56,828 nt of DNA, filler included, from Jimgerdemannia flammicorona (GCA_003990765.1; 3 parts of 3 records of this genome joined end to end with filler, not necessarily neighbours in it), one strand, 5' to 3'. Shown: positions 14,325-37,857, numbered from the whole stretch's first letter. The notes: generated by a model from the letters alone, not told the origin. Numbers and translations are program-made.

Positions 14325-15804
14325 TTAAACGATGTCGGAATCGCTCTTCACCGAGTGCTCTTGTACCAGCCCGTTGGCTGATGAAGGCTTAATGTCGAGC
14401 ATCTCAATGCTCTGCGTGCTGGACGTCCGTTCCAACGTCATGCCAGACTTGCTCTTGCTTGTGTTGCAATTCGTGAGCCTGTTCGTGTCTTTCGAGAGCA
14501 TGTGGACACCACAAGCCTCGCAGTACGAACCCGATTGACTCTTGTTATCATCGCGATCGCCACACAGTGCCTCGACGATGAGGGTGGACTCGGCTAAATT
14601 GAAGTATGTGGTCAGATCGTTTGAGGCGGTCCCTAGGAAGCTGGTGACCTTGATGAAGTTCATGAAAAAGTTGCAGCAGAGGCCAATGATGAGGTAGATG
14701 AGGGATTTTCGGGCCATCCGCTCGACAAAATTGCTTTTGCGGTTGCTACCCTCGATAACCCATCGGTATTCCGAAGCGTGTTTTCGCAATCTGTCATTGC
14801 GGGGAAGGATATTTTTTGCTCAGGTAAGAAAATTAAGCAAAAGACAATTTACCCACACGTAGCCCTTTTGACTCACCTGTAAACGAACAGGCCACCAAAG
14901 AACAAGTTGGCAAGAGTATCGCCGATAAAGCCCAGGATCAAAACGCCTGGCTCCCATACTATGTAGCATACGACAAGGTCATTCGAGCCTGCTGGTTGGT
15001 GAGCATTGTCGATGATATCTCGTTGCGATATAAAGTATGTTCCGACCTCATATGGCCAGTCTGAAACACAAAAGAGTGAACCATATCAGCGTCTGGAGAG
15101 CGGGAGGGAGGGGGGACCCTATCATTGTGACATCGGTTATAATTTAATACCTGCAAACCGGAGCAGGAGCAAAACGCTGCCGACAATCTTGATCATACGG
15201 ATTTGCTGAGGTTTCTCAAATACGATAAGGCACCGCAGCAGCAAAACGGCTTCCATAAACAGGTACATCAAGTGCCAAAGACTACCAAAGATAAAAAAAA
15301 TGATTGAATTAAGTTTTGGAAGGTGAGCGCGACACAACTCTGGTAAATACGCAACAGGTGACGGAAATACGTACGTAACGCCTATGGGGAAAATCCAACA
15401 GGACTGTATTTTAAACAGGCCTTGGGTGCCACTGATGATGCGCACCGAAAACAAGACGACCACCTGAAGCAGATTGAGGAGGTGGCTACAATTGAAGAAG
15501 GCTTTTTGTTGAGTATAAAGTTGCGGCAATTGCAGACATGGTATCGGCATGAATTGTTGACGGGAAGGATGAAGACTTACATCAATTTTCTTGTGCGCCT
15601 CAACTGGCGCCCGCACATAAATGCGTTTCGAATGGAGATCACCTTTCATTTCGAAACCCAGCGAGTTAGACGATGATGGTCGTGTAATGGATGATGCGGG
15701 GATAAATGGACAGGAAAGGATGGAGAACGCACAATGGAGAGCCAACTGCCAATCATATCCAGATTATTGAACACAGATGTCCAATATTCGTTGAGGACGA
15801 TCAT
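14325..15804 (-). CDS. 7-transmembrane GPCR-like protein (~341 aa), 6 exons
   Basis: Exons 15804-15733, 15642-15581, 15485-15375, 15281-15151, 15060-14877 and 14790-14325 give 1026 nt with matching phases and GT-AG introns. About seven hydrophobic segments, Cys at the top of TM3 (QSCW) and in ECL2 (VVCY), and a Ser/Thr-rich C-tail. Confidence 0.85.
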
Positions 15805-18800
15805 GTCGTAGAGTTGAATGACCGATGGGTTACAAGGAAATTTTGACTGTGGGGCGGAGGGTTTAATTTATAGTGCCTAACCCCTCCTGATCGACGTTGG
15901 CGGGCGCAATTAAGTGTGGATCACAAGACTTTTGGGAATTACACAAACAATCTCCATAAGCATCTGTAGCGACCGTATTGAGGGTAGGCGAAGACTCAAA
16001 ACCTCCAACCTTGAGTTCCCATTTCATTTTGACGCGTGCCAGAATGTGTGTGACAAAATTCACTTTGGGACATTTCTTCGGGAGCGTCGATTATTCGATC
16101 GTGGTCTGTGGGAAGTTTACGTAATGGCCATGTGGGGCGGGGGGCGGTAAAGTGTTCATCCGCCAATTATGTTTTCGGTGCGAATCCGAGTCCCTGGGGA
16201 CTTTTTGATGACAACACGATAGCGCGGCAAGGTAGGTTTAGCAAAAATCCGAACTTAACTACGAAAACCATGATGCAATACCGTCCCAGAATCTCAATCT
16301 CGCTGTCTTTTCCGCGGCCGGTTGACAGTGAGCATGTGATTGCGAGAGTTAGCTCGTTGGCCGGACTGGTGATAGATAGTGTCACCGGGGAGACCATAAA
16401 CAAAGGCAAGTATCACCAATAGACGATCCCGATTTTCGAGAATCAACAATGAAACCGGGCAGAGGTTATGAATTCCCACCAATACTCGCATCTCTCCTGA
16501 TCTCGTCGATAACTCCGAAAACGAGCCGAACCGAACCGATCTGCTAGCCTGCTTGGTCTACATAAAAAAAAAGTTGCCACCAACGCCATCCATAAACCAA
16601 AACGCCACCTGTTCACGCTCTTGCAAGAAAATTGGCCCTTTCCTAATTAATAGCTCAGCCGAACGCGGCACCAAAGATCTTCATGCGTACAGTACTTTAG
16701 GTACACCAGCCAGAGGTATTGGTATATAAATGCCTTGTGCTTTGTGACACGTCTGACCAATGAACCCGTGTAACATACCCCACCAAATTACCCTGTCATC
16801 CTTGAGAACCAAAGTGCACGAACTTTTCATTAAATCCGTGGGAGAGACCAGCCACGTAGCCAGCACAGATCTTTCCCTCGGCTCAAGCCAGTTCCACATG
16901 GGGCGAGCCCAAAGCGGAGAGCAGCCCCACAACAGGGCCACCTGTTTCTGCACGGCGCATTCCTTGTTATAGGAAACACGTTTGGGGTTTTTTTTACCCA
17001 TGTTACGCAATTTTGGGTAGACGGCAAAACCTAAATTGCGGTAATGCTGTAGATTAAAATGTATATTCAGTTTTGTGAATACAAATGTCGAGAAAAGGGA
17101 TTAAAAATTGAAGCGACTTTTTCAAAGTTACATACGATACCATTGAATAAAGTCGATAAGACCAATTACTTTTCAAAAATATAATATATTATTATTATAA
17201 TGTAATTATTTCTCATGCTTTAATCATATACGCATCGATTGCAATTAGCAACCCACACGCTTCCAAAATGACAACACTGGTCACAAAAAACCTGTCTGTG
17301 AGGCAAAAATTAATTCTCAGACCTCCAGTCACCCCACGAAATCATTGCCATAAACAATCTGCATAACCCATGAAGGGTGAACCCAAAAATAATTGCCCTT
17401 TGAACATTTATATTCAACTAGTGCGATTTCTCGATTTCGGAAACTCCTTGATCACTTTCCCTGCGTCTGTCAAACACTGATCGCAGGTCGAGAGTCAGTG
17501 AACCCACGTGGTGGAAGCGTCAGTCGCGGGAACCGAACCGCGTGCCCACCTGCCGATTTTGTCGTTTATGACGGGGGGGTTGGGGCCCACGCCCGACGAA
17601 GGACTGCACCTGAGGTTCCCGCGCCAAAAAGATGTCCCCGTTAGGAATTCGTCCGTTCACATAGTCACAAGCCACTAACGAATTGGTTGGGAGTCTGCTT
17701 CAACTTGGGGGGGTATGGTTCAGTGGAGGTGTCGTATTGTATATACGAAATTTCGGCTCTGGTCCCGCGTTATTAGTGCAAGTCTGACCAAATGAATAAT
17801 CAAACGTAGCTATATACGTATCTTACACATCTGCGATTCAGAGTTTCGGATCGAAAAATGTGGAAAACACCTCATGGAGTGTACCCAGAGCGACATGGAG
17901 CCCACGAGGCGGAGCTAGGGCGATGTTCTTTTGGCGTTTTCGGGTTGAGAGAGGATTAGGATGGGGTCGGCGGTGGCGTAGGTTAGAATTTGCAGATCTA
18001 GCTTGTGAAACACGCTTGAGGACGTGGTAGAATTTGCAGATCATGCCGTTTTTAGCTGGTGAAACACGTAGGTCGACATTATTGTACGACATTTCCTATT
18101 CCTACAATTTACAACGAAGATCGAAAAATTTTTCTCTCCTTTTTTTGGAGAAGGAGAATTGGGGGAATGGTGGAGATTAATGTGCCAGAAATCTCCTTAT
18201 GTGCAAGCGTGCATGCATTGAAAGTCATTGACATCCCGATGGACTCTTGGAGAGGCAGTTACCTCAGGCATTCGTGAATTTTTAGGGTTAATGCTGTCAT
18301 TTTGTATAATGAATGAACAGGACACAACCACAAAATGACCATTGACTGCGATAATAGCAGGTCATAACAGGTTGAATCTGAGAACAATCACCTGATAGGC
18401 TGCTGACTTTTGCCAAGCATTCGCAAAAGCTATAAATGTTTGCGCATGGACGCGATGACATTTTCGGGTCGCGTCCGGGGTTTCCGCTTCAAGTGAGTCC
18501 CGAAGTTCCGCATTAGAACCAATGTGCGCGCGACGCGTGCTGGAGGATGTGTATAATCAATAAAACTCGGGAAGACGGAAGCCAATCGTATTCCCGCGGA
18601 ATGTGTAGCTAAGCAATTCACGTGAGTAGATGGAAATTGTGGTAAGCAATTATAACAAGACAGTTGCATCACGCCATTTAGTTTTCACTCAGGGGTGCGT
18701 ATTCTGTAAGTCGAACTGCATGCGGTGAGTATAGGAGCGTCGCGATAAACGGGTTGGCGAGTGTGCGGGGCGTAAAAAATTGTTGGGAACACACATATGT

Positions 18801-18883
18801 AGCAAAATGCATGTTCGTGTGAAATGGGCTATATAAGGCAATGAAGCGTTGATGTAACTTGTGTGTAGTATGTGTGTTACCAA

Positions 18884-18983
18884 NNNNNNNNNNNNNNNNN
18901 NNNNNNNNNNNNNNNNNNNNNNNNNNNTTAATTAATTAANNNNNNNNNNNNNNNNNNNNNNNNNNNNNNNNNNNNNNNNNNNN
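18884..18983. other. Assembly gap with TTAATTAATTAA linker
   Basis: 100-bp N run with a central six-frame-stop linker, identical in form to 37858-37957. Confidence 0.97.
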
Positions 18984-19086
18984 CCCTAACCCTAACCCTA
19001 ACCCTAACCCTAACCCTAACCCTAACCCTAACCCTAACCCTAACCCTAACCCTAATCCTACCCTAACCCTAACCCTAACCCTAACC
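18984..19086 (+). repeat. Telomeric repeat tract (CCCTAA)~17
   Basis: Direct reading, with a couple of variant units. The left end runs into the gap. Confidence 0.97.
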
Positions 19087-22000
19087 TCTCCCCTCCTTCG
19101 CCTCCCCATCAGCCAGCCCTGCTTCAAAGGCAGGTGGTACTGTAGCCATGATGAGTGACATAGTGATGGATTTAGAAGCTGAAGCTTCCACCTCAGGTGC
19201 TTCCCACACTGTTGGTGCTAATGTGCCTGGCCCACAATGAGAGTCGGGTTCCTCAATGCACATGGACTACCCCAGGACAAGTTTGATGTGCTCAGTCAGT
19301 TGATTGGTCCTGCTCTCGACATTCTTTTCATATGTGAAACGTGGTATATCTCGCTGTGTCCCTCTCCGCTCATTCACATGTCCTCCCCCCCGGTGTCGTA
19401 CAGAATTGTGGGTCACCAGAATGGTGGTCTCGTGGTCCTTGTGTCAAACTGTTTCACCCCCCTCATTTCTGGGTCCTCTGCCAACCCCTTCCATATCCGG
19501 CTCATGTTCTAGAGTCTGGCTTTGGTTGGGGTTTATGCCCCCCCCTCTCTTCCCATTGGTGGCTTCCATGATCTGGTGTCTAGACCCTTCCCGGATAAGG
19601 CCCTTTTGATCGGTGACATCAATACCTGCTTCGGTGCCTGCCTTGGTGACATCAACTCTGATCCCCATGATCAGATGGATGTCATCGACACCTCCCTGAT
19701 GACATGGTCATTGAACCACCTGACCCCGGTGGCTGGATCTATATGCGTTGATCACGCATTCGCCACCACATCCCTCCATACGTCCCTCACCTGCTCCACC
19801 CCTCCTGTCCCTACCGACCACCCCTCCCTCCTCACCATCTCCTTCCCCTTCTCCCTCTCACCAGTTGCTGCCTTGGCTGGCATCCGTCGCTACTCTGCGA
19901 GATACCTGACCGACTCGGTCATTCAAGCTCACCTTCAGGAATCAGCGGATATCGTTTGCGATACCGTTATCAGATCTATTTACTCTGTTAGGGACCACAT
20001 CGCCGGCTTTCGCTCTGTGGAAGATTGCCAGCAGTTTGTGGATTCTCTTGATGCTCTTTTGACCTCTAGTCTACAGTCTGTCTGTGAGGACATTCTTGGC
20101 TCGTATGATGCAAGAGAAATCAGAGCAGCGCCACTCCCTAGGTGTGACCTCCTTTGCAGTGCATCTTCGGTCTCTGATGCCATTCATGGTTTTAAGCGGG
20201 CGTACTGCTCCACCCCCCCCACTCCCCTCCAGTCCCACTCCCCCAATATCCTGGTGTTCGATGATGTGGTGGCTCACTTTACCACTATCTTCGGTCAGCC
20301 GGACACCTCCCTCTACCTCGATGACTCTGAAGACGTCTTCCCCCTCGGCATGGGTGCTCTTGGGCTGCAGTTTTGGTTTGACCAACCTACAGTTTGGAGG
20401 GCTATCCGCAGCTACCCCCTCTCAAAGGCATGTGGTGCTGACTCCTTGCATGTCTGGATCCTTCGGGTAATGGCAGGTGAGAAGGACGCCCCCTGTAGCC
20501 TTTCGAAGGCCCTTTCGTTCTTCTTCCAGATGTGTGTGGTCTGGGGGCTCACTTTCCGCCGCTGGAACTCAACCATCATCACCGCGGTCCCCAAGAAGGA
20601 GGAATTGCGAATGATTGATGGATTTCACCCTATTGCTCTGACTGAAATGTTTCATAGACTCTTTGAGCGGTATTTGGAAGGGTACGTCAAGAGCCGAAGT
20701 AGCCTGACAGAAATATCATGCTGCCAAGGTGGCTTCCGAACCCGCTTCTCATCCCTCTCTCATGTCTTGTTATCGCACGAAACGTGGGCTAAGGGATGGG
20801 ACCGCCATGTCTTTTTGGACCTCTGGCAGACGTATGATCGAGTCCTCCTCAAGTGCATTCTTTTCTACCTTAAGGCGCGAGGTGCTGATACAGTCCTCCT
20901 TAGTATTATCCAAAGCCTGTTCAATCACTGTTCTTATCAGATGGTTGTTAACGGCCTCATCACCCCTTCAGTCTCCACTGAGCGTGGCCTCTTTCAGGGC
21001 TCCCTCCTCTCCCCCTGGCTGTTTGATGTCTTCATTGACCCCCTCGCCGCCTCCTTTGATGAACAGTTCAAGGAGTACGACTTCCCCCTCAGGCTCTTCT
21101 TTGCTGATGATATTGCCCTCACCCCCCGCACTGCCGTAGAAGGGCAAAGGATGGTTGATTTTTGTGAGGATTGGCTTCAGGTGAACAGTATGGAGCTCAA
21201 TCTCAAGAAGTGTGGTTATGTTGGCCCAGCTGACTGTACTGTGCTGATTGGGGGCGAACCCTGCCTGCGACCCACCTCCTACGTATACCTGGGCATGCCA
21301 TACACCAATAAAGGATTTGACTTTGTCAGTCTTGCGTTGCAGAACACAGCGAAGGCAGAACAAACTCTCGGGTTCTGCCATGCCCGTGGTCCTCTTTGGT
21401 CACCAATGCTCAAGTTGGCCATCATACGAATATTCATTAGGCCTTAGCTAGAATATGGCCTCCCCCTCCTACATGCTTCCTATCCAGCTACTACCATGGG
21501 GCTTCAGGTATTGAAGCATCCCGAGCAGATCTTTGATGATGCTGTCTCTTGGCCGATTGGATTTTCCATCCATCCCTTGCTTGGCAGTTCGATTCTTGGT
21601 CTCCCTTTCTTTCTCGTCGCATGTCTGACCTCTGCTGCATGTTCCAAGCTCATCTGGATTGGTGTAGCAAGTTGGGCAACAACCCTATCAGCCCTCTTAG
21701 CGAGCACTTTGTCACACATCCCCCGGGTTCTATCATTGACAAGTTTCGGTGTTGGACCTCTTGGCTTGACTTCCTCGACTGGTACTGGGATCTCCATCTC
21801 TAGGTCCACAAGACTCGCTCGCTCCGCTCCTTTCTCCAGTCCTTCCTTCGGGATTAGTTGCTGCAGGAATGGGCCTCCTCCTCCCAGGCTCTCATTCGGT
21901 ATATTACCCCCAAAGTCCATTTACGGTCGTGGGGCGCCAATCGCATCCTTTCCTTCCCCCCCCGGCTTGTGCGTTCTGCTCTCGCCTGGTGCTATGGCTA

Positions 22001-22690
22001 TTTTGGCCAACCCTGCCCCTGCCCCTGTGGAGATAAGTTTCATCGTGGCCATCTCCTTAGGTGCGGTCTTCTCAATGGTTCATATTCTGCTTTCCGAGAT
22101 TCTTCAGATCGAGATGAACAACTTGACTGGTTTATCAATGACGAATGGCAGGGAGAACTTCATGCCTACCCTCTTCACGCTCTTCACGAGACAGCCTACC
22201 ATGCTAATGACGCTATGTGTAATTCTGGTGGCCACCTCGCGGTCGGGTTCTGTCTGACCGAGATTACAAAGATGCTTGGGTGATCGAGTGATCATACATT
22301 TACTTTACTTTTTTCTCTCCCCTCATTTGCCTCGGTTGGTTTCCCCATTGTTGAGAATGCATTGAGTTATTTATCTTATGTCAGACATTTGGTATTTGGT
22401 TGTTGATATAGTTCATATAGTAGGCGCCGGGCAAATGTGTATTATATCTTAGCCTTTCCTTTCTTTGCTTTTTGTATTTATTATCTCTATGGCCATGACA
22501 AAATGGTTTTATCCAGCCCATCCATAGGGTGGTCACCTCTCTGACCTTTGTTTTGTACTTCTTAGCTAGTTGTTTGCTTCACTGGTCTTGTTTTGCTTTT
22601 CTCATCTTAGGAGTCTTGTCTTTTGTTGCTCTGATATACCTTTCTTCTTTACAATAAATAAATTCTTGCTTGAAGCCTAACCCTAACCCT
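19087..22690 (+). mobile_element. Telomere-associated non-LTR retrotransposon family A, copy 1 (5'-truncated in ORF1)
   Basis: Begins at the position equivalent to ~24241 of copy 2. Contains APE-RT ORF2 and a 3' UTR with AATAAA, and ends in CCTAACCCTAACCCT (22676-22690). Confidence 0.95.
19237..22283 (+). pseudogene. LINE ORF2 (APE endonuclease, RT, C-terminal Cys/His motif), disrupted
   Basis: APE motifs FLNAHGL, FICETW, GVYAPP, IGDIN, VDHAF, TDH. RT motifs QGSLLSPWLF and FFADD. C-terminal CPCGDKFHRGHLLRC. Stops at 19510 and 21445, plus a frameshift. Confidence 0.93.
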
Positions 22691-22904
22691 AGCCACTCAT
22701 GTGATTTCCCCATTTGGCTATACTCGGCTTTACGGCCCGAAGCTATTCCAAATTAAGAAAGCAGTCACTTTGATTAGCTAAACCTCTCATCGGGTATAAA
22801 TACCCCCCTTCTCTATTATTTTTTCGTTACACAAACAAAGGTCATGTGACCCACATTTCACAATTTCACAAATACAAACAAATACACCTTCGCCTATTCT
22901 AACA

Positions 22905-24393
22905 ATGTTGGCCACCTCCTCTGTCATCAGTGATGATGGCAACGCCACCCATCTCTTTGCGCGTTTCGGTACCTCTCTCCGCTACACTGAATGTCACAGC
23001 ATTGGTCTTCTCTCCCTCGGCTTCGGCGAGGGTAGCCTTATGGCGATGTGCAGGTCATGCGGGGATGCACGACCGATATCATTGTATTTATCTTCCCTGC
23101 ACGTTGCAGAAGATGACGAAGAGATCGCGATCTATTCCAATTCGGACTATAACACCCAGCGCCACCCCTATTCCCCTACGCCCCCGCCCCTCAATCAGAA
23201 CAAGCGTGATTGCCCAAACACTAGTTTGGGAATGACCCTGACTACCGGTCATGCAGGCCCCTCAGCCGACCCCGATCTAGTCACAGAGATGGCCGCGATA
23301 AGGAAGCAGATCTCGGATCTGCTGACTCAAGTGGCTAAACTGGCCAAGATCAATGCCCAGCTGATGGCGCAGCTTGCTGCGTATCATGCGCCCACCGCCC
23401 CCCCATCATCTGGTACTCCTTCGGGAAGTACCCCCACCGCCCCTTCCACATCTGCCCCCCCCAAGTCCTTGGCCCTCCCTCCTACTAGTCCTGCCGTGAA
23501 TACGTAGTCGAAGGCCCAGAAGCGAGCAGACAAGCGGGCCGCCAAAGCTGCTACATTGCAGTCTAGTGCGCTGCCGAAGGAGGTAACTCCCACGGCTGTG
23601 CCTCCAGCTACCTAAGCTGTACCCCCTAAAAAGGGCAAGGCCAAGGCTCCCGGACCAGTGCCCCAGGTTACGCCTGAGGGACCCAGTGCCACCGGTCCGT
23701 CTTCGTCCTCTGCTTCGGCCCCCGCCCCCCCCAAATCATATGCCACTGCCGCCAAGAAGGTTTCTATCAAGGATAGGACTCAGGCCTACTCCGAGATGGA
23801 AAGGGCAGCTGCCGCTACTGCCCTTTCATACATGACCCACAAGCCGACCTCTCATTTGTCGCTGACTGAGAAGGGCACTAGGCTGCAGTATGTTTACGTC
23901 GACAGATTTGCCCATCTGAAGATCGGGCAGATCCTGAAGAACTTGTATGATGTTGTCCAAAGTTCTCAACATGTCGTACGTCTCAGCGTCGACCATCAAA
24001 TTCCTTCTCCACCCTGATTATGTCACAGCATTCCAAAAGAAGATGAAGGCGCTCGGGTTCTCAGTGCTGTCACCCTGAGACCCCATGCTCCCATGCAACA
24101 AGAATGCCACGGAGGCCATGAAGACGCGGGTCCTCCAATCATTCCATGCTCGGGTCCGGCAGTTGCCTGGCGAAGCCACTGCAAAGAGGCCAAAGGTGCA
24201 GACCTTCTACCGAGCTTGGGCTGCGGAACTCGGCCTTACTCTCTCCTCTCCCACCTCCCCGTCAGCCAGCCCTGCTTCAAAGGCAGGTGGTACTGTGGCC
24301 ATGACAGGTGATATGGCAATGGATTTGGAAGCTGAAGCTTCTGCCTCAGGTGCTTCCCATGCTGTTGATGCTAACGCGCCCAGCCCACAATGA
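22905..24393 (+). pseudogene. LINE ORF1 (gag-like), disrupted
   Basis: Coiled coil LVTEMAAIRKQISDLLTQVAKLAKINAQL, a Pro/Ser/Thr linker and a KSYATAAKK motif. Its stop overlaps the ORF2 start (ATGA). The start could instead be the ATG at 23232. Confidence 0.75.
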
Positions 24394-27300
24394 GAGTCGG
24401 GTTTCTCAATGCATACGGACTACCCCAGGACAAGTTCGATGTGCTCAGTCGGTTGATTGGTCCTGCCCTTGACATTCTTTTCATATGTGAAACATGGCAC
24501 ATCCCACTGCGTCCCTCTCCCCTTATTTACATGTCTTCTCCTCCGGCATTATACAGAATTGTGGGTCACCAGAATGGTGGTCTCGTGGTCCTTATGTCAA
24601 ACTGTTTCACCCCCCTTATCTCCGGGTCCTCTGCCGACCCCTTCTATATCCGGCTCATGTTCCAGGGCCTAGCTTTGGTTGGGGTTTACGCCCCCCCCTC
24701 TCTTCCCATTGGTGGCTTCCGTGATCTGATGTCTGGACCCTTCCCGGGTAAGGCCCTTTTGATCGGTGACATCAATACCCACTTTGGTGCCCACCTTGGT
24801 GATGTCAACTCTGGTCCTCACAATCGGATGGATGTCGTCGACACCTCCCTTATGATGTGGTCATTGAACCACCTGATCCCGGTGGCTGGATCTATACGCG
24901 TTGATCACGCATTCGCCACTGCATCCCTCCATGTGTACCTCACCTGCTCCACCCCTCCTGTTACTACTGACCACCCCTCCCTCCTCACCATCTTCTTCCC
25001 CTTCTCCCCCTTGCCGATTGCTGCCTTGGCTGGTATTCGTCATTACTCTGCGAGATACCTGACTGACCCGGTCATTCAAGCTCACCTTCGGGAATCAGCG
25101 GATATCGTTTGCGATACCATTATCAGGTCTATTTACTCTGTTAGGGACCACATCACTGGCTTTTGCTCTGTGGATGACCGCTAGCAGTTTGTGGATTCCC
25201 TTGATGCTCTTTTGACCTCTGGTCTACAGTCTGTCTGTGAGGACATTCTTGGCTTGTATGACACAAGAGAAATCAGAGCAGCACTGCTCCCCAGGTGAGA
25301 CCTCCTTCGCAGTGTATCCTCGGTCTCTGATGCCATTCATGGATTTAAGTGAGCATACCACTCCACCCCCTCTGCACCCCTTCAGTCCCGCTCCCTCAAT
25401 ATCTCTGTGTTTGACGATGTGGTTACTTACTTCACCACTATCTTTGGCCAGCCGGACGCCTCCCTCCACCTCGATGACTCTGAAGACATCTTCCCCCTTG
25501 GCATGGGTGCTATTGGGCTGCAGTCTTGGTTTGACCAACCTGCAGTTTGGAGGGCTGTCCACAGCTACCCCCTCTCAAAGGCGTGTGGTGCCGACTCCTT
25601 ATATGTCCGGATCCTTCAGGTGATGGCAGGTAAGAAGGACACCCCCTGTAGCCTTTCGAAGGCCCTCTCGTTCTTCTTCCAGATGTGCATGGTCTGGGGG
25701 CTCACTCCCCACCGCTGGAACTCAGCAATCATCACCCCGGTCCCCAAGAAGGAGGAATCGCAAATGATTGATAGATTTCGCCCTATTGCTCTGACTGAAA
25801 TGTTTCGCAGACTCTTTGAGCAGTGTTTGGAAGGTTACGTCAAGAGCCGAAGTGGCCTGACAGAAATGTCGCACTGCCAAGGCGGCTTCTGAACCCACTT
25901 CTCATCCCTTTCTCATGTCTTGCTTTCGCATGAGATGTGGGCTAAGTGATGGGGCCGCCATGTCTTTTTGGACCTCCGGCAGACGTATGATTGAGTCCCC
26001 CTCAAGTGCATTCTTTCTCGCCTTGAGGCGCGAGGTGCCGATGCAGCCCTCCTTAGCATTATCCGTAGTCTGTTCAATCACTGTTCTTATCAGGTGGTTG
26101 TGAATGGCCTCATCACCCCTTCGGTCCCCACTGAGCGCAGCCTCTTCCAGGGCTCTCTCCTCTCCCCCTGGCTATTTGATGTCTTTATTGACCCCCTCGC
26201 CGCCTCCTTTGATGAACAGTTCAAGGAGTACGACTTCCCCCTTGGGCTTTTCTTTGCTGATGATATTGCCCTTACCCCCCGCACTGCCGCGGAAGGGCAA
26301 AGGATGGTTGATTTTTGCGAAGAATGGCTCTGGGTGAATGGTATAGAGCTCAATCCCAAAAAGTGTGGTTACGTTGGCCTGACTGACTGTACTGTACTGA
26401 TTGGGGGCGAACCCTGCCTGCGACCCACCTCCTATGTGTACCTGGGCATACCGTACACCAACAAAGGGTTTGACTTTGTCAGCCTTGTGTTGCAGAATGC
26501 GGCAAAGGCAGAATGAACTCTTGGGTTCTGCTATATCCGTGGTCCCCTCTGGTCGCCAATAGTCAAGTTGGCCATCCTATGTACATTCATCAGGCCTCAG
26601 CTGGAGTATGGCCTCCCCCTCCTATGTGCTTCCTGTCTGGCTACTACCACGGGGCTTCAGGTGTTGAAGCATCCCAAGCAGGTCTTCGATGATGCTGTCG
26701 CTTGGGCGGTTGGATTTTCCGGCCAGCCCCTGCTTGGCAGTTCGATTCTTGGCCTCCCTTCCTTCCTTCATCGCACGTCTGACCTCTGCTGTATGTTCCA
26801 AGCCCATCTGAATTGGTGTAGCAAGTCAGGCAACAACCCTATTGGCCCCCTTAGTGAGCGCTTTGTCACGCGTCCCCCGGGTTCTATCATTGACAAGTTC
26901 CGGCATTGGACCTCTTGGCTTGACTTCCTCGACTGGTACTGGGACCTCTGTCCCCAGGTCCGTAAGACTCGCTCGCTTCGCTCCTTCCTCCAGTCCTTCC
27001 TCCAGGATCAGCTGCTGCAGGAATGGGCCTCCTCTTCCTAGGCTCTCATTCGGTATATCACCCCCAAAGGTTGCTTGCGATCATGGAGCGCCGACCACGT
27101 CCTTTCCTTCCCCCCCCGGCTTGTGCGTTCTGCCCTCGCCTGGTGCTATAGCTATTTTGGCCAACCCCGCCCCTGCCCCTGTGGAGATAAGTTTCATCAT
27201 GACCATCTCCTCAGGTGTGGTCTTCTCGACAGTTCGTATTCTACTTTCCAAGGTTCTTCCGATCAAGATGAATAACTCGATTGATTTTCCAATAATGAAT

Positions 27301-27437
27301 GGCAGGAGGAACTCTGTGCCTACCCTCTTCACACTCTTCATGAGACAGCCTACTATGCCATAGACGCCATGTGTAACTCTAGTGGCCATCTTGTGGTTGG
27401 GTTCTGCCTGACCGAGATTACGAAGATGCTTGGGTGA
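24390..27437 (+). pseudogene. LINE ORF2 (APE-RT), ~1015 codons, several nonsense mutations
   Basis: Same motifs as copy 1. The 3048-nt span is a multiple of 3, and the stops are consistent with C>T changes (CAG>TAG, CGA>TGA). Confidence 0.93.
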
Positions 27438-27844
27438 TCAAGCGATTGCACATTTTCTTTACTCCCTTCTTTCCCCTTGTTTGCCCTGGTTGGTTCCCCA
27501 TTGTTGAGAATGCATTGAGTTATTCATCTCATTTCAGTCATTTGGCATTTAGTTGTCGATACAGTTCATGTAGTTGGCACCAGGCGAATGTGTATTATAA
27601 CTTAGCCTAACTTTTCTCTGCTTTTTGCATTTATTATCCTTACGGCCGTGACAAAATGGTTTTATCCAGCCTGTCCATAGGGTGGTTACCTCTCTGGCCT
27701 TTGTTTTGTACTTCTTAGCTAGTTGTTTACTTTACTGGCCTTGTTTTGCTTTTCTTATCTTAGGAGTCTTTATCTTTTGTTGCTCTGATGTACCTTTCTT
27801 CTCTACAATGAATAAATTCTTACTTGAAGCCTAACCCTAACCCT

Positions 27845-29672
27845 CTTAGACTCAGGTTATTCCCTATGTCTTCTACACTAGTGTGTTTTTCTTTATTAAT
27901 GATATGACCCTCATTCCTCCTGACAGAGTCTTGGTAACACTCAGTGTATAGTTGATATTTGTATTAAGTAGGTAGATATCAATAGTATCTCCTTCAATGC
28001 TAGTAAGTCTAGTGTCCTTTTCTCTGGCAATATCATTATCCTTACCCAATCCTGGGTTTCTTTCTTCTCCTCTCTCTCCTCTTCTCTCTTCTTATACCTA
28101 CTTTGATTATTCAATATAATATCTTCTTGACTGACTTTTCTTTGATTGGCCTGGTGAGCTGGTGACCCACTATAAGAAAGCTGCCTCTTTCCTCTATATC
28201 CTTTTAGCTACAGATAACAGTTGAGATCTGGCTGCATGACTTTCAGTTTACTGAATATTTATATGATTACAGATTGACTATATTCTGCTCTTTCTTTATA
28301 CATATGAGCATTTGTGGCATCTTTCTACTATATCTCATTAATCTCAAAAACTGAGATATCAATATTTTGCATTGATGTCTGGACCTTTCTCATACCTCTC
28401 CTACTACTATCTATGCTATTATATATGTAGCTCTAGTCTTTTCTTGGGCTGAGGCTTTGGCTGTATCTGTAATATTATAGATTTTTCATCTCCTACACTA
28501 TTCACACTATCCTTACCAATATTCCTACCATCACCTCTATCTTTCTCCACTCTCTCCTTGAGAAGCTCTATGCTAATTTAATCTGGCTCTCCTTCTACTA
28601 GAACCTCTCCAACCTTGTGTTGCCTCATGCCCTCAGTTTTTATATTGTATACTCTCACATTAAGTCACTCTCCTCTATATCAATATCAGTCTACTACTCT
28701 TTATAACAGCTTGTAACTATCAGAGTTTTGGTTTAGACTGATATATTTATATCCAGGACCCTTATCTTCACTACAGCGCTCTGCTCTGGTATGTGAATCT
28801 ATTTGGATTTATGGTAGAGAAATAGCAGTGAGCTCTTTTACTACTCTTATGCTCAATATCTCCTAATAGATAATATTGATACCTTAGTTGCAATCTGACC
28901 TAGTGCTCCCAAATGAGTCAAATCAATTCAAATCAAATTGAATTGAGGGTTAAATGAGTCAAATCAAATTAGGGATTTTTGAATTCAAATCAATTCAAAT
29001 CGAATCAAAAGTTGAATCAAATTGAGGGTCTGATTTGAACCCTAAATTTCAAAATACAATAACTCAGCATAAACTCATCCAAATCTAACATACTTTAGCT
29101 TGTTAGAATCATATTAATATGATGAATCTAAGCTAAAATATATTAAATTTAGATGAATTTTCATCAAGTTATTACATTTTGAAAATTATGATTCAAATTA
29201 AACTTCAAATCAAATTGAACCTTTGATTTAATTTGAATTGAATTGAATTGGACCCTTGATTTAATTTATTGGGAGTACTAATCTGATCTATATATCAATA
29301 CTTAGGATCTTATCTCAATAGTATTCCTCTATACATTTGGTCCTTGATCTCCCTGAGTATGGTCTAGTTGATGCAGTTCTTAATGGGTATGATTGGCCCC
29401 TTACTTCCTCTCTTTTCTGTACACTCAAAGCTACTATAGTTTCTGATCTCTCTCTTCTCCCCTCCTCTTCTTCTATTCAGTCTCAGTTGTATGGTTCCAT
29501 TAGACCCATTCTCTTACTGTAATATTGTTTTTCTTCAACTTAGTCTTTTTCCAAACCTTGATATATCTTATATTATTAGTCTTTATACTTTATTTAGCAT
29601 TTTCATAAGTCAGTATAGTATAGATATAATGATACACTTTGAATAAATATCTTACTTCCTATCTCTAACCCT
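27845..29672 (+). mobile_element. Telomere-associated LINE family B, 5'-truncated degraded copy
   Basis: Colinear with ~32735-34215. Ends gaataaatatcttactt-CCTATCTCTAACCCT (degenerate tail 29658-29672). Interrupted by a hAT MITE. Confidence 0.85.
28901..29280. mobile_element. hAT-type MITE
   Basis: TIRs tagtgctcccaa / ttgggagtacta and 8-bp TSD atctgacc / atctgatc. The paralogous LINE at ~33800 shows the empty site. Subterminal AATCAAATT repeats. Confidence 0.9.
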
Positions 29673-32600
29673 CTTATATTGCCTTTAACCTCAATGGTAT
29701 ATATGTTAATGTTACCTATCTCTATATATAACTCCTCCAAGATATCATCCTCCTCCTACAGCAGGAGCTCTATACTAGTCATGCTAAGGCTACTGCTAAT
29801 ATTGCCCAACTTACTGCTACCCTCTAACAAATCTCAGATCTCAACAATTACATTATTTAGCTAATTGACTGACTAATATATTTTGAATCCCCCACTCAAA
29901 CCACCTTATATTCTCAGTCTCATAGTTGTGGTCATACCACCTCCCCTCCCTCTGCTGCCACCAGGACTCCCATCTGGCTATATCAGTCATGATATCTAAT
30001 ATTAAGATTTTTGAGATTTTCTCTAGTGAATCTCTCCCACCTGTCAATAATGATAAGACCAAGGAGTCTACCTTTATTCTAGTATATCAAAGTCCCAGAA
30101 GAAGAGAGTTGTTCATGCTGCCCAACTTGTCTTTACCCCCCCTCCACTCTCCTCAACATCTTCTGCTCTTGGTTCAGTAGTCCATACTGCTGCTGCTAAC
30201 TCTTACTATCTTTATCTCCTCTATCTACTGCCTTAAAAGATCTTCCCAACAAGGGGTAGTTCTTGTTCTCTCCCTCTACCTCTAGTTCCAAGGCAGCCCC
30301 CAAGTCCTTTACTACTACCTCCTCCTCCAATATTCCCAAGGTTACCCTCTTCCAACAAGCTATTAATAAAGCTACTCACTGTATAAAGTCTAATATTGCT
30401 GATGATCTTTTTCAGACTCTTCTCCCCAATACTCAAGCCCACCATATCTGCCAATATCCCACCTATGTCTGGTCCACTAGACTATATAGTGTATATATTA
30501 ATTGTATTACTTGATAAGCCATTTCTGCTCTCAGTAAGGACCTCTGCTTTTGGGGATTTACTGTCTCCAAAATTCACAATGTCATATTTCTCAGTGACAA
30601 TATTACTGAATTCCTCATCTCTGATTATTATTGCATGAGTTTAAGTTCAAGATTACTCATTTTGAATATCAGATTCTTGAAGAGTATGATCCCTCTTATA
30701 TCTGGAACTCCAAGGCCTCTAGTAATGTCCAGACTAGGGTCTGTGAAGCATTTCAATATCATGTCCAGTGGTCTGCTGAGCCTTGTAGCAATGAGCAAAA
30801 CAGGGTATGATTTATTAACTGGGCCTGCTCTCCCAATATATCAATCTCTCCATCTCCTCACTCATAGTAAGAAGGAGCTAATGTCTGAATATATATATAT
30901 TGAATTTCTAAATATACAAGGACTCTTCTCTGGGAAATTCCACTCACTCTCTCTCTCTACCTTCTCCTGCTTTTATTATCTTTTTGTTGCTGGAATCTAA
31001 TACTTATCTAATAATGTTATCTGTCTTTTTCCTCTTTTCATTACATCCTCACCTCATTAACCCCTCTTGAGTTAACTCTGAGAGAGGTTGTAACCTCTCA
31101 ATCAACTTTGATATCTCTCTGGTTAATATCTCCAATAACTGTTTTCTTATATATTATTTCAATAGTCTCTCTCTTATTGGTATATATCTTCTCTCTTCTC
31201 TCTATATTACTTCTGATGTCAGTTCCTCTACCTGCTACCTATCTCCCTCAATTTCCCTTTCTGCTATTATTGTTAGTGACTTTAATATCAACTATACCTC
31301 AGTCTCTCCCCCTGATCACATTTATGCTATTGGACAATAGGCTAGCATCCTGTCCCTTCATTGATTCCCCCCTCTCCCCTCTCCTCTACTCTGTTGGATT
31401 GACCATATCTTTGCTTTCTCCTTCTTGAATATGTCTGTTACTCTTCACCACTCTCTAGTCTTTACTGATCATTTTTCTATGCTTTCCATTTCCCTCCCAG
31501 TCTCTGCCATCTGCTCCCTTGCCCTCTCTGCCATCTGCTGATTTGTGGTTTCTCTACTATACTCTCCTTCTCTCCACCTTTGCCAGTCTTTTACCTAGGG
31601 ACTTCTCTTTGATCTTTCAGGGTCTTGAGATACTGTAGAATAGCCTTACCCCCTCAATCTTCTCTTATATCTTTAGTATTAACATCTATAATTAGATGCT
31701 GACTGATATAATTTGTATTACTGCTAATGTCTCTATTGGTACCATCAACCCTATCTTCAACTACCATTGTCCTGATTATATTGGTGGCCACCTTGGCTGA
31801 TACTCCAATTCTATGGCTGCCATCTCTCTTTGGAAATGCTCTCTCTGAACTAGTGATCATTCTTTCTTCCTTACTATTCCTGAAGAAATTGATGACTACC
31901 AGAGGGCTATCTACTCCACTCTCATCCTTACCCATTACTCTTTGTTCCTTCTCCTGGACTACTCTTCTGAGTTCCCTGATTATATTGGTGATTTTGATCT
32001 TATATCACTCTTTTCTAAACACACTGTATAATAGACATACCACTGGTATTCTCTCTCTAAGTTCCCAGACATTAATGGCATTTATCATCACCTTTTCCAT
32101 CTCCTGGCTAGTGACCACTCTTTCAAGAATTACCCACTCTCTATTTTCCTCTCTCTACTCACATCTCTCTTTCAAATATATACTATTGCTGGTATTACTC
32201 TCTACTGTTGGAACTCTGTTCTTATCTCTCAAATCTCCAAGAAGGGTGTCTCTTTTGGTGTTGATGGCTTCTATTGTATTGTTCTTACCATTATGTTCTA
32301 CTGCCTCTTTGAGTCTGTACTCCTCTGGACTCTGGAAAAGAGTCCACATTTCTCCTGACTTGTGTCCTTCAGTAGGTACCAAGCTGGTTTCTGTTCCTCC
32401 TTTTCTACTGTAATATATACTCTCCTTTTGAATTATGTTATTGACAAGAACTCCTCCCACTATATTGTCTTTCTGGACATTGCGAAGTACTATAACTATG
32501 TTCCCTTCCCACTCATCCTCTCTTACTTTGCTGATCATAGCTACCTCTAAGGAATTCTTTCTCTTGTCTGGTCCATGTTCTATAGTCTTACTATCTCTAC

Positions 32601-34215
32601 CTTAGTGAATGGCATTGCCTTATCTAGTATTATTGCCAACATTGGTCTTCTTTAAGGAGTTGTTCTCTCTCTGTGGCTTCTCAATATCTTCCTTGACCCC
32701 TTGCAGATCTTCTCAATTGACAGTTTCTCTCTCTCTCTTAGACACAGGCAATTTCTTATACCTTATATTCCAGTATACTTTTCTTCATCAATAATATAAC
32801 CTTTGTTCCTCCTGACAGAATTCTTGATATCACACAATACATAGTAGATATATATATTGAGTGGGTGGATACCAATAATATCTCTTTTAATGTAAGCAAA
32901 TCTTGTGTCCTCTCTCTGATAATATCATCATCTCTATACATTCTTGGATTCCCCTCTCTTCCCCCCTCCCTTCTCTCCCCTCCTATACCTACCTCAGTTA
33001 TCCCATATGATATCTCCTTAGCTAGCTTTTCTTTGATTGGCCTGGGGAGCTGGTAGTTCACAACAAGAAGGCTGCTTCTTCTCTTTATGATATTTAGACT
33101 ATAGGTGATGATTAGGATCTGACTGTATGACTTTTGATATACTGAATATTTATGTATTTACAATTCAACTATATTCTGCTCTTTCTATATATGAGCATTG
33201 GTAGTGTTCTTCCACCTTATCTCCTCAATCTTAAAAACTGGGATGTTAATGTCTTGCAATAGTGTCTCAGTCTTCCCCACACTACTCCTGCTATTATCCA
33301 TACTATTATAGGTATTGCTCCAGTCCTATCTTGGGCTGAGACTTCTGCCATATCTATAAAGTTATAGGACTTTCACTCCCACTACTCCTCCAATTCTGTT
33401 CATGTCATCCTTGCCGAAATCTCCACCATAACTACTGTCTTCCTTTGATCTCTCCTTGGAAAACTTTATGCCAATCCAGTCTGACTCTCCTTCCACTGAG
33501 ATCTCTTCAATCTTGCCTCACCTCATGCCCTCAGCTCTTATGTTGCATACTCTCATATTGAATCACTTTTCTCTAGATCAATACTGATCTACTATATCTT
33601 TATGATAGCTTGTAACTATCAGGGTTTTGGTGCAGATCAGTGAATTTATATCCAGAACCCTAATCTTTTCTACAGGGCTTTACTCTGGTATGTAAATTTA
33701 TTTGAGTTTATGGTAGAGAGATATCAATACATTTGCAGTGAGCTCTTTCACCTTTTCTATACTCAGTGTCTCCTGGTGGATGGTGTTGATGACCTAGTTG
33801 TAATTTGCTCTATATATCAATATTTAGGGTCTCATCTTGCTAGTATTCTTCAATATAATAGTGAATATTTGGTCATCAATATTCCTGAGTATAGCTCAGT
33901 TGATGTAGTTCTTAATGAGCATAATTGGCCCCTTGCTTCCTTTCTTTTCTTTGAACTTAAAGTTACTATGATTTCTTATCTTTCTCTTCTCCCCCCACCC
34001 TTTCTCTATTTGATCTCAGTTGGATGGTTCAATTGGGCCCTTCTCTTCATTATTGTTTTGTTTTTCTTCAACTTAGTCTTTTTCATTACTTATTCTAACC
34101 TCAATCTGTTGTGAATTGTCAGTCTTTATATCCTACTTAGTATTTTGACAAGCTGGTATAGTATAGATGTACTGATGCACTTTGAATAAATATCTTGATT
34201 CCTAACCCTAACTCT
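29673..34215 (+). mobile_element. Telomere-associated LINE family B, near full-length degraded copy
   Basis: ORF1-like coiled coil and PKSFTT motif, APE start IEFLNIQGL (~30900), RT remnants YQAGF, VFLDIAKYY and LSLWLLNIFLDPL. Tail CCTAACCCTAACTCT at 34201-34215. Confidence 0.85.
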
Positions 34216-34452
34216 GATCTCTCTCTTCTCCCCCTCTCTTCTTCTATTTGTCCTTAGTTGAATGGTTCAATCAAGCCCTTTTCCTTGCTGTAGTTTTGTT
34301 TTTCTCAATTATATCTTTTTCATTATTTGTTCAAAACTCAATATCTTATAATTTATCAGTCTTTATCCTCTATTTAGTATTTTTACAAGCTAATGTAGTA
34401 TGGTTATACTGATACACTTTAAATAAATATCTTAATTTCTAACTCTAACTCT
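34216..34452 (+). mobile_element. Family B LINE 3'-end fragment
   Basis: Matches the family B 3' UTR (e.g. 33970-34200). Ends in TCTAACTCTAACTCT (34438-34452). Confidence 0.85.
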
Positions 34453-37400
34453 TTGTAATTCTTTATAGAATCATATCTTTTTACCTATGCCTGTATCTTC
34501 TAGTAGTTCTCTAGACAACATTTCTCTAATAGATTTCTTATATAGTATACCTATATATTATAGTTCTTACTATTGAAGATAGGACAGGAATTATTCTTTT
34601 TATTGGTATAGCCACTCTCACTACTGGTATAACTATTGGGAGAACTGTACCTATACCTGTACCTATATTACCCATACTTGGCATCATACTTGAGCTTTCT
34701 GGGTTTGATATTGACATCTTCATATATTATATAATATATATTAAAGAGCTGTTTTTATATTCTGCTTCTGCTACTGAGGCTCATAACCTTTATTGTAAAC
34801 TTATAGAAATATAGAGGAAAAGAAAGTACAAATTTATATCAAGTTGTAATAGAAATAGAATTTCAACAGAAAGATAGTTGAAAGCCAAAATTGTCAACAG
34901 ACTATTCCATTTTACTGATTTCACTAATATCTATTAGATTCTTATTCTGAAAATCAGTTTCAGAATTATTAATATATAATATAAATATAAAAGTTCAGGT
35001 ATAACCATAATTATAAAGAACAAGAATCTCAAATCTCTTTAGGGTAGGCTTATCTCTAATAGATGATATAAGTAATTTTACTATAGAAACAAATCATCAT
35101 CTCATTAACTGAGATATTAAAACTTGGTTGGCAGATTTCTTTAGAGATATTTTATATATATGAGAGTAGAGACTCAACCTCAGTATAATAATTATTTTTC
35201 TGAGATCTATAGTTCAAGATATATAAAAATCTCTTTATTTGCTTAAATCAAATTAGTAGTATAAGTTCAGTAATATAATGAAATAGTCTATTATTATTGT
35301 TAATATTCCAAAGATATAAAAGATTAACAGCTGACTTCAAAAAGGGACCAGAATAGATGCAAATGCTAAGATATATCAAGATTTCAAGAATCATAAGATT
35401 TCTCTAGTACCAATCCTTTTTACTAACTTTTTTCAATTTAGTATATTTATTTATATTAATGAAATGATCTTAGAATCTAATCCAGAAAGAATAAGTAAAA
35501 TAGATCTATGACTGATAAGTCTCTGATTAGTATAAATTATTATACAACTTAAGCTGAGTGGATTTTATATTAAAGCAGTATAAAGGCTAATATGATAGAA
35601 AGCTTATATAGGACCAAGGAGGCTATAGCTTATATATATATACTTATATAGTATAAAAGCAGACAAAGTTGTAGAAATTTCAGAAATAATAAAGAGATAT
35701 TATAATTCTCTTAGAATCTTTAAGTAGAGAAAATCTTAAGAGTAAGAGCTTAGTAATAGAAGGTCTGGCAGTAGATAATTGAGAAGAGATAGAACAATAT
35801 TATTAGATTCCCACATCACTAACTCTTTAACTCTTCTGAATAATTTCCATAATATATCAAATTACTAATTTACTTTTTTATTCTTTTTTTAGACTACACT
35901 TCTTCAATATCTGTATATGGCTCATCATCATCATCTTCTATATAGCTTAAAATTTTCATTGAAGTTAATATTCTCAAAATTGAATTAAGTCTTATCTAGT
36001 AGTTTGCAAATAGGAATAAGAAACTTAAATACAAACTTGTTGTCTAATATTGACATAAGTATAGTATAGGTATAGTAAATTATAAATATATAAAATCATA
36101 TATATTAGATCTGAAATATATAGTATATATCAGTATATAATGATATAGTAAAGAGATATTTGATATAGAAATGGTAGCACTCTTGTCTTCTGATATATAT
36201 TAGCATAGATATGGTATAGATATAGTATGATATAGATATGTAAAAATATAGTCATTAGATCTAAATTTTATAGTAGAATATATGTGAGTATAAGTAAAGA
36301 GATTTTAGTATAGAACAGCAGCACCAATAAATGTTTATATATTATATATAGCTAGAATATATACTAATTGGCTAGATAAATTTATGATTTATAAATTCAT
36401 CTAATAGAATTAATTTGTGGAATTAGTCAATTTAATTACTAATTTTATCTATATTATAGATTAAGAGATATATTAAATATTTATATTCTAATTAAGTATA
36501 ATTATTAATTTAAACTAAAGTAAGTTGATGAAATGGAGACTATAGAATGGTATAACAATATAGTATATTTTATAAATAAGTTGATAAATCGAATTAATAC
36601 TTATAAAAAAAAAAATAAAAAAAAGTATAAATACTAATTTATATATAAAAGCTCTTCCAAAGCTAAAGTTTAAGTAATATTAAAGAAACTCTTACTCTGT
36701 TATCTTACTGATCACAAGGTTTGGTAGGCAACCTTCTGAGTTCCCTTTTCCCTATTATTACTCTCTCTACCTTGGGTTAGTTTGCTGTACCTATATGTGC
36801 ATAGTGAGAGGAGGGCAATAGTAATGAGTTGCCCCTTTATTGGTATCTGATCAGTATCTTCTTCACTTTTTTGCAGTTTCTGGTATCTTCAGCTATGTCT
36901 AGAGTATATCCATTTTGGTGCAGCACCTTCTTTCTTTTGCCATTTCCAACAAGGTACTATCTCAGTGTGTCTTGGGCTATATAGGGAGTTGGCTGACCTT
37001 GGGCACAAGTGCTCACTGTAGATTACCTGCAGGTCCTTGGTATCTGTGGTGGGGCCCTCTGGCTTTGGCGAGCTTCCTGGCAAGTATGGTTCTGGCATAG
37101 GTGACTGCTTTTTGGGTATTGTCAGAATGGAAGAAGAGATGGTCATCACAGATAGGAGGAAGAGCAATAACAGTGGACCAGTAGGGTGCCAGACTAGGGG
37201 TAGCTGTCAGGACTGGGGAAGGTGCTGCTTTGGTGGGGCCTTTTGATTGGTGTAGTGTAGTTAGATGATAGGTGTCACTCTCAGCTTCTTTTGGCAGTTA
37301 GATGGGTTAGGTCCCAGTCATCAGGGGGGGTCAGGGGGCCTGAGGCTATCTATTTCAGGTATCTTGGCTACACTTAACTAGAACAGAGAGCTTATATGGT

Positions 37401-37857
37401 AATGTGATCAAGATCTGCAGACTTGAGTAGTAGGGTATTGGGGGTTTCCTCCCACCTTATGTGTAAGTCCTTTACTCACCTCAACTGGGAGAACCAGATC
37501 CTACCCACCATGTTGTGCTTTGATGAGGGGTTTTTTTCTGCCTGTCATTCTCTTTGGGGTGACAGGGGCTATTCTATTTGGCTTAGATATGGCCTTGTAT
37601 ATACATTGAGTTCTTGGACATATGCTTTCGGTCATTGGCATATAGCTGGGTTTCCCCTAGTGATAGGGAGAGTATAGTGTGCAGAACAAGGTGTAGGTCT
37701 CATTGACTCTGCTGTACCTGGTATAGTCGAGCTACTGAATAATAGCTAGCCTAGGTTAATGGGAGAGCAGTGCTTGGTGGGTGGTGGGGGAGGGTTTTGG
37801 CCTATACAGTCTAGGTTCCCTTCTAGTAAAAATCCATGGAACATTGAATCTGTTAAA

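Follow-up and report, generated by a model that had tools for sequence, protein, structure and literature searches.

Telomere-directed retrotransposons are known from few lineages, namely TRAS/SART, HeT-A/TART, GilM/T of Giardia, MoTeR/FoTeR/Cnl1 and Athena/Coprina, and they are central to ideas on the relationship between telomerase and retroelements and on the instability of subtelomeres. TRAS and SART elements bear poly(A) tails, and their open reading frame 1 (ORF1) has C-terminal zinc knuckles. Drosophila has no telomerase repeats, and its HeT-A, TART and TAHRE elements end in poly(A). Tx1-1_ACar and Zepp are of the apurinic/apyrimidinic (AP) endonuclease type (APE type). In this study, we analysed a DNA stretch of 56,828 nucleotides, filler included, from Jimgerdemannia flammicorona (GCA_003990765.1), called the window hereafter. 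One of its contigs opens with a telomeric tract, behind which five copies from two related families of APE-type long interspersed nuclear elements (LINEs) stand head to tail, each followed by a 15-nt telomeric tract. These copies probably belong to an old, telomere-directed LINE lineage.

The described systems differ in how they reach the telomere. SART1 requires at least three telomeric repeats, and a long poly(A) is needed for its accurate initiation, as reported in PMC7265360. The TRAS1 endonuclease cleaves T/A on the G strand and C/T on the C strand (PMC2868851; a slash marks the cut). Athena and Coprina, which are Penelope-like elements (PLEs), are described as having no endonuclease and as carrying reverse-complement telomeric stretches beside hammerhead motifs (bioRxiv 10.1101/2021.04.23.441226). 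MoTeR, FoTeR, Cnl1 and the Cnl1-like elements of Malassezia are described as combining a reverse transcriptase (RT) with a restriction-like endonuclease and as grouping with CRE/SLACS (PMC12857005; PMC10055393; bioRxiv 10.1101/2021.08.11.455996). The CRE-like endonuclease motif is given as CCHC ... RHD ... E ... PD ... D/E, C-terminal to the RT (PMC12857005). As telomere-associated elements, a survey of 2023 names SART/TRAS, GilM/GilT, Zepp1, MoTeR1, Tx1-1_ACar and Athena (PMC10088271). We found no APE-type telomere-specific LINE of fungi in open-access full text; Repbase and Novikova et al. 2009 lie outside that scope, so an earlier description is possible.

The window consists of three contigs (1-18883, 18984-37857 and 37958-56828; GC 0.42, 0.43 and 0.31, respectively), which are connected by N44-TTAATTAATTAA-N44 linkers at 18884-18983 and 37858-37957, and the order across these joins carries no meaning. 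Because a linker precedes the middle contig, position 18984 is a true contig end. The middle contig opens there with 17.3 copies of (CCCTAA)n (95% matches), and CCCTAACCCTAA occurs 14 times in this tract against 0 expected. A C-strand tract at the start of a contig looks like an assembled chromosome end with its tip at the left. Self-BLAST and exact string positions placed five LINE units behind the tract, A1 and A2 of family A and B1, B2 and B3 of family B, all on the + strand with their 5' ends toward the tract (Table 1). A1 is 87.8% identical to A2 over the last 3.6 kb (24241-27844 of the window), B1 is 72-75% identical to B2 over the last 1.5 kb (32735-34215), and B3 is 76-79% identical to the 3' ends (last 240 nt) of B1 and B2. 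The 5' truncation points differ among A1, B1 and B3. An earlier note on this DNA had described a same-orientation array in the order A, A, B, B, B behind a telomeric tract, with telomeric repeats at every junction. The array is borne out by the self-BLAST and string positions, and a 15-nt tract is indeed present at all five junctions, with the added detail that J3 and J5 are mutated.

Directly after the 3' end of each of the five units stands CCTAACCCTAACCCT or a variant of it with 0-3 changes. When the whole window was searched for CCTAACCCTAACCCT with up to three mismatches, 22 matches were found against 1.46 expected by chance, and none of 100 shuffles reached 22. Outside the terminal tract, the matches lie at the junctions 22676, 27830, 29658, 34201 and 34438, all on the + strand; the only others are 22682, a shifted overlap of J1, and 2430 on the minus strand of the first contig. 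The tracts J1-J5 open with CCTAA (TCTAA in J5) right where the 3' untranslated region (UTR) stops and close with CCCT, which mutation has changed to CTCT in J4 and J5. The 3' UTRs of the units have AATAAA, then 10-13 nt, then the 15-nt tract; that of A1 terminates in AATAAATAAATTCTTGCTTGAAG. They pass directly into CCTAACCC, without the intervening poly(A) of the TRAS/SART type, and no poly(A) was found at the LINE 3' ends of the window units or of the relatives whose 3' ends were read. The simple-repeat 3' tail that characterizes LINEs is here the telomeric C-strand tract.

Length and phase of the tract are constant whether it precedes full-length 5' ends (J1, J3), truncated ones (J2, J4) or unique DNA (J5). 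The tip tract joins A1 in a different phase, ending in ...TAAC, unlike the CCCT at the inner junctions. Because the phase is fixed at five junctions but different at the tip of A1, we infer that the 15-nt tract is part of what is retrotransposed, a templated tail in place of poly(A), rather than a remnant of telomerase repeats. Such a remnant, of critical length, was considered as the source of the tracts and set aside, since telomerase healing of arbitrary 5' ends should vary the phase of the inner edge, as it does at the A1 tip, whereas the inner edges are all in CCCT phase (CTCT through mutation in J4 and J5).

Table 1. Terminal telomeric tract, LINE units and junction tracts of the middle contig, in window positions (slash, joint between tract and unit).
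Feature	Position	Strand	Remark
Terminal telomere tract, C-strand (CCCTAA)17	18984..19086	+	meets truncated A1 out of phase, ...CCCTAAC/CTCTCC
A1, 5'-truncated family A LINE	19087..22675	+	starts in ORF1 3' end
J1, 15-nt telomeric tract CCTAACCCTAACCCT	22676..22690	+	followed by AG
A2, full-length family A LINE	22691..27829	+	~5.1 kb
A2 ORF2 AP-type endonuclease domain	24390..25181	+	open 264-aa stretch; motifs LNAYG, CETW, GDIN, VDH, TDH
J2, 15-nt tract CCTAACCCTAACCCT	27830..27844	+	
B1, 5'-truncated family B LINE	27845..29657	+	begins within RT
J3, mutated tract CCTATCTCTAACCCT	29658..29672	+	2 mismatches
B2, near full-length family B LINE	29673..34200	+	heavily decayed, AT-rich
J4, tract CCTAACCCTAACTCT	34201..34215	+	1 mismatch; final 2 nt overlap B3 start
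B3, family B 3' end	34214..34437	+	last ~224 nt only
J5, innermost tract TCTAACTCTAACTCT	34438..34452	+	3 C-to-T changes; abuts AT-rich non-LINE DNA

Family A has the coding plan of an APE-type LINE: a non-LTR RT (LTR, long terminal repeat), an N-terminal AP endonuclease, no LTRs, 5' truncation, and ORF1 before ORF2. ORF2 of A2 (24390-27437) stays in one frame throughout its 1015 codons, free of frameshifts but interrupted by 10 internal stops, and its endonuclease catalytic motifs are intact. ORF2 of A1 starts at the ATG at 19237 and is disrupted by two stops (codons 92 and 737) and by a 1-nt deletion. ORF1 of A2 starts at the ATG at 22905 and is broken. The 5' UTR of A2 has a TATAAATA box; it also contains GGGTATAAATACC at 22780-22810, about 100 nt before the ORF1 ATG, which may be the TATA box of an internal promoter.

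The RT was matched by Pfam RVT_1 (E 6e-16 in A1; 1e-24 to 9e-31 in relatives), and its best solved-structure match is L1 ORF2p. A profile of the family matched human L1 ORF2p at E 5e-41 across endonuclease and RT, R2 at 1e-29 and the isolated L1 endonuclease at 2e-3; it retrieved neither the TRAS1 nor the R1Bm endonuclease in a sequence search at E<=1. Matches to Pfam Exo_endo_phos stayed below threshold, and a PDB search with the single A2 endonuclease sequence gave no match at E<=10. An AlphaFold model of this domain (24390-25181; predicted local distance difference test score, pLDDT, 80) matched the endonucleases of L1, R1 and TRAS1 and also APE1 in Foldseek, at E 5e-10 to 4e-8 with probability 1.00. 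The predicted structure thus confirmed that the N-terminal domain of A2 ORF2 folds as an AP endonuclease. Neighbours in the ESM Atlas are of the Exo_endo_phos plus RVT_1 type.

The ORF2 alignment contains the motifs N, E-T-W, G-D-x-N, D-H and T/S-D-H, the RT motif F-A-D-D and a C-terminal C-x1-2-C-x7-8-H-x3-C. Across 9-19 relatives, the catalytic columns N, E, D-x-N and D-H vary little or not at all. ORF2 stops about 50-80 residues past the CCHC without a further conserved block, nor was a zf-RVT domain detected in the family. Ten relatives and A2 share a conserved ORF1, in which a Cys motif is accompanied by a coiled coil and by an 'RVYVxG' domain that we regard as RRM-like (resembling an RNA recognition motif). 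ORF1 shows no C-terminal zinc knuckles, and Pfam found no family above threshold in the ORF1s of nine relatives and three pieces of the A2 ORF1.

In family B, decay has left just pieces of endonuclease and RT recognizable. B2 has an endonuclease remnant at 31158-31589 (tblastn E 5e-4) and an RT remnant from 31912-32703 onward (tblastn E 6e-28 against A2 and 1e-25 against the relative P0001). The remnants are collinear with family A, and the two families are about 32% identical. Between A1 and A2, 397 transitions were counted against 38 transversions, and the allele with C stands chiefly in CpA (163) or CpG (122). The observed/expected ratio of CpG is 0.01-0.03 in B (0.01 in B2), up to 0.05 in the inner flank and 0.52-0.57 in A. 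The copies in the window are all dead through transition mutations. Because its CpG ratio is far lower and its copies are 72-79% alike versus 88% in A, B is older than A, and the older units lie farther from the tip.

Relatives of the family were collected in two ways. A protein search with family A ORF2 gave 16 relatives, 13 of them at 25-38% identity, mostly about 1000 aa long and intact. A scan of metagenome contigs with the family alignment gave 80 loci, of which L001-L020 belong to the family (25-40% identity, most spanning most of ORF2) and 60 are unrelated LINE loci. Against an RT profile, family rows scored 245-555 bits and all remaining rows at most 174. In a quick maximum-likelihood RT tree of 64 rows, from which 11 rows under 300 aa had been left out and which includes A1, A2 and one identical pair, 33 family rows were split from 31 other LINE RTs by a branch with an approximate likelihood-ratio support (SH-aLRT) of 96. 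Many relatives have intact ORF1 and ORF2. The size of the family was estimated with a profile of the N-terminal 417 positions (endonuclease and linker) in a library of 50%-identity clusters: the number of matching representatives was 2406 with a cutoff of E<=1e-3, 739 with E<=1e-10 and 348 with E<=1e-30. Of the 150 best matches, nearly all extend over the bulk or the whole of the profile, and some three-quarters have a length of roughly 1000 aa. The sources of the 10 best clusters are only metagenome or run assemblies (JGI/IMG, ENA, Logan, MetaClust).

The relatives carry the telomeric tract as well. Runs of 9 nt or more that keep the CCCTAA register perfectly were found on the + strand in 11 of the 20 family loci versus 4 of the 60 unrelated LINE loci, and on the minus strand in 1 of 20 versus 6 of 60. 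(CCCTAA)2 or longer occurs on the + strand in 6/20 family loci and 0/60 others, and its G-strand form in 0/80. The 3' end of the element is on the contig in 16 of the 20 family loci, and in 10 of these 16 a same-strand run follows the 3' UTR (L002, L003, L004, L005, L006, L007, L009, L011, L012 and L018). In most of the relatives with a tract, the run begins 1-15 nt past AATAAA; the spacer is 23 nt in L004, and AATAAA was not seen before the tracts of L011 and L018. CCTAA or CCCTAA opens most of these tracts, and CCCT closes them. Head-to-tail neighbours occur in L001 and L012: in L001, the 3' end of the preceding copy is followed by CCTAACCCT and then the L001 5' end, and in L012 there are two 3' ends in succession with a tract on each. 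Because relatives at 25-40% identity carry same-strand tracts and the family is large, the telomeric tract at the 3' end characterizes a large, old lineage instead of being a quirk of this contig.

The earlier note had also claimed that the array comprises two LINE families, with ORF1 and an APE-RT-Cys/His ORF2, of a telomere-targeting lineage. Its coding plan is correct, as seen from the RVT_1 match, the Foldseek fold match, the conserved CxxC..H..C and ORF1; A and B are distinct families within one lineage according to tblastn; and the targeting of telomeres is supported by the tracts after the relatives' 3' UTRs, the head-to-tail copies and the single tree branch.

Some relatives have other repeats nearby. 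A minisatellite of about 29 nt, (AATAGACATGCACCGTA + CCCTAACCCT + 2-3 nt)n, stands right after the tract at L006:8633-8830 and L002:4465-4640; it resembles a stack of extremely short 3' ends from a further tailed element. L009:1-172 contains two units of about 118 nt with CCTAACCCTAA at the end of each. A gene with an OrsD domain neighbours L018.

We consider it fairly probable that A and B, both decayed, represent two families within a single old, telomere-directed lineage of APE-type LINEs with a C-strand telomeric tail. The element RNA would carry a short C-strand telomeric tail, here CCTAACCCTAACCCT, 10-13 nt past AATAAA, and this tail would pair with, or be copied onto, a 3'-OH of the G-rich strand at the chromosome end. 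The priming 3'-OH may come from the natural overhang or from an endonuclease nick, placed within the telomere duplex or at its base. Reverse transcription would proceed toward the chromosome tip, so that in each copy the 3' end comes to face inward and the 5' end outward. A 5' end toward the tip is expected if a G-rich-strand 3'-OH primes first-strand cDNA, and the sense strand then continues the C strand. Repeated events would pile copies head to tail and push older ones inward, B first and then A, and telomerase would cap the outermost, 5'-truncated copy. Inferred parts of this scheme are that RNA templates the tract, which 3'-OH primes, in what order the events took place and whether the host gains from them. 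Nicking would be part of the life cycle, as in TRAS/SART; the conservation of the catalytic residues in relatives that are only 25-35% identical argues for this.

Several observations weigh against this reading. Pairing with a telomere of normal length predicts long internal tracts, yet the longest telomeric run among the scanned loci is 28 nt. To explain this maximum, one must assume in addition that insertion takes place at the base of the telomere, that copies attach to uncapped ends, or that tracts shrink later. A strictly templated tail does not fit the copy-to-copy differences in tract length, 9 versus 4 nt in L001 and 17 versus 10 nt in L012. The L001 element's own 3' end is followed by CCTA only, and no tract is present at the visible 3' ends of L010, L013, L015, L016 and L020 (5/16); L015 and L020 are deep branches, and the DNA that holds L010 and L013 is extremely AT-rich. 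L018 is embedded in a 48.5-kb contig at a depth of more than 30 kb, so not every copy is terminal now. L006 has rDNA on its 5' side and is internal today: 5.8S, ITS2 and positions 24-664 of the large-subunit (LSU) model (about 660 nt of 28S) lie at L006:1676-3189 on the same strand as the element, whose 5' end joins the truncated rDNA unit via TAACCCTA near L006:3135. This junction has the look of either a broken rDNA repeat to which a short telomere was fused or an element that was placed beside an rDNA end. Within the window, all five copies are dead, so the activity is historical, and a single chromosome end of this organism was seen, so that interior copies may exist.

Other explanations place the same tracts differently. 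Endonuclease-independent healing, in which tailed RNA is copied onto uncapped or broken ends as proposed for Athena/Coprina and in HeT-A/TART, is possible though rather unlikely. Each unit would supply its own 15-nt tail, and no telomerase repeats would stand between units. The tract is indeed constant in length and phase at all five junctions while abutting truncated 5' ends and a unique flank, the out-of-phase junction at the A1 tip is what telomerase healing would give, and endonuclease-deficient PLEs are described as attaching to G overhangs by reverse-complement telomeric stretches (bioRxiv 10.1101/2021.04.23.441226). However, the endonuclease conservation noted above argues for use of the nuclease, and ribozymes able to trim the RNA, hammerhead or like that of hepatitis delta virus (HDV), were not found with Rfam, whether the gathering score was applied or, for the contig, a limit of E<=5.

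The tract might instead be a target-site duplication made by nicks at TTAGG/G on the G strand and at CCCT/AA, 15 nt away, on the C strand, and repeated insertion into one short tract would regenerate both sides and build the array. The fixed phase at both edges of all five tracts and the length of 15 nt, which is typical of LINE duplications, agree with this, and SART1 is reported to require at least three repeats and to insert only in the third (PMC7265360). We nevertheless regard it as improbable, for it requires an original tract of about 15 nt beside unique DNA at J5, the A1 tip junction ends other than in CCCT, and tracts in relatives range from 4 to 28 nt. That ordinary dispersed LINEs settled in an insertion-tolerant subtelomere, with the tracts incidental or the array copied by recombination or break-induced replication, is very improbable. 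Subtelomeres generally gather repeats, the remainder of the contig is AT-rich, CpG-poor and repeat-like, and one chromosome end is a small sample; but the same tract in one orientation at 5/5 junctions, the same-strand tracts after the 3' UTRs of relatives at 25-40% identity, unlike at unrelated LINE loci, and the absence of poly(A) from every 3' end read are hard to reconcile with it.

If the link to telomeres, which we favour, is true genome-wide, the hosts concerned would have in this family a third, independent kind of telomeric retrotransposon, and the family would offer a natural (TTAGGG)n-directed endonuclease to characterize and would mark old chromosome-end positions. The family is not confined to one genome, with 348 clusters at E<=1e-30 and many relatives with intact ORFs. 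One may go further and suppose that a deep, widespread, probably fungal lineage uses the templated tail, its substitute for poly(A), to extend ends with lost or very short telomerase repeats, as a back-up of telomerase that acts in the manner of the Drosophila elements but beside a functional telomerase, each 15-nt tract marking one rescue event; we hold this bolder idea to be unlikely.

The rest of the window contains few recognizable features. A foldback repeat of 380 bp, resembling a miniature inverted-repeat transposable element (MITE), is inserted in B1 at 28902-29281; its arms (28982-29115 and 29116-29249) are 73% complementary without a loop, and a second copy, 74% identical, lies at 52188-52570 in the third contig. 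The inner flank of the array (34453-37857; GC 0.31, CpG observed/expected 0.05) has no recognizable gene, and a GC-richer block begins at about 36700. The ORF at 10748-11404 (+) has two polyglycine-hydrolase-like BTRD1 repeats (Pfam E 2.7e-10), the sole ordinary protein domain found outside the LINEs. These repeats, the OrsD-domain gene beside L018 and the transition-biased decay at CpA and CpG hint at a fungal host, as does, weakly, the ESM Atlas result for an ORF of the first contig. In the first contig, two long neighbouring ORFs at 476-1648 (-) appear gag-like by eye and have no Pfam match. In the third contig, the ORFs at 38832-39422 (-) and 46771-47739 (-) share motifs by eye (…HQIF.H.PW.I..L…) and may be another repeat family.

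Among the described systems, HeT-A, TART and TAHRE of Drosophila (Jockey clade) resemble the array in their head-to-tail arrangement at ends, distal 5' ends and frequent 5' truncation; unlike them, the window array is capped by telomerase-type (CCCTAA)17 and has telomeric tails. Also similar, as telomere-associated LINEs compared by description only, are Zepp of Chlorella and the (TTAGGG)n-specific Tx1-1_ACar, a Tx1-clade element from the green anole (PMC10088271). MoTeR1/2 of Pyricularia, FoTeRs of Fusarium, Cnl1 of Cryptococcus and the Cnl1-like elements of Malassezia are described as having their 5' ends toward the terminus and as forming subtelomeric arrays with interstitial telomere repeats, as here. 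However, MoTeR, FoTeR and Cnl1 have a single ORF with the endonuclease after the RT, whereas the window family has an N-terminal AP-type endonuclease and ORF1, and no C-terminal restriction-like endonuclease in a single ORF was seen in it.

In domain plan, the family is like TRAS/SART, the telomeric-repeat-specific LINEs (R1 clade) of Bombyx and other insects, with two ORFs, an N-terminal AP endonuclease, RT and Cys/His motif in ORF2, fixed orientation and coexistence with telomerase repeats. Fixed-orientation insertion flanked by telomeric repeats was found here too. The TRAS sense strand carries the C-strand repeat, as do the LINEs in the window, and the predicted fold of the A2 endonuclease matches the TRAS1 endonuclease structure 1wdu. 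The differences are that TRAS/SART have poly(A) tails while the window elements have none, that the window junctions imply cuts at G/G and T/A, unlike those of TRAS1, and that ORF1 of the window family shows no zinc knuckles at its C-terminus. The short reverse-complement telomeric stretch at the 3' end is a likeness to Athena/Coprina, PLEs of rotifers and of fungi, protists and plants, which have a telomerase-related PLE RT, hammerheads and no endonuclease, whereas the window family has an AP endonuclease, a LINE-type RT and 0 ribozyme matches. The family presents a combination in which an AP-type endonuclease like that of TRAS/SART is joined, without poly(A), to the telomere-complement tail hitherto tied to endonuclease-less PLEs.

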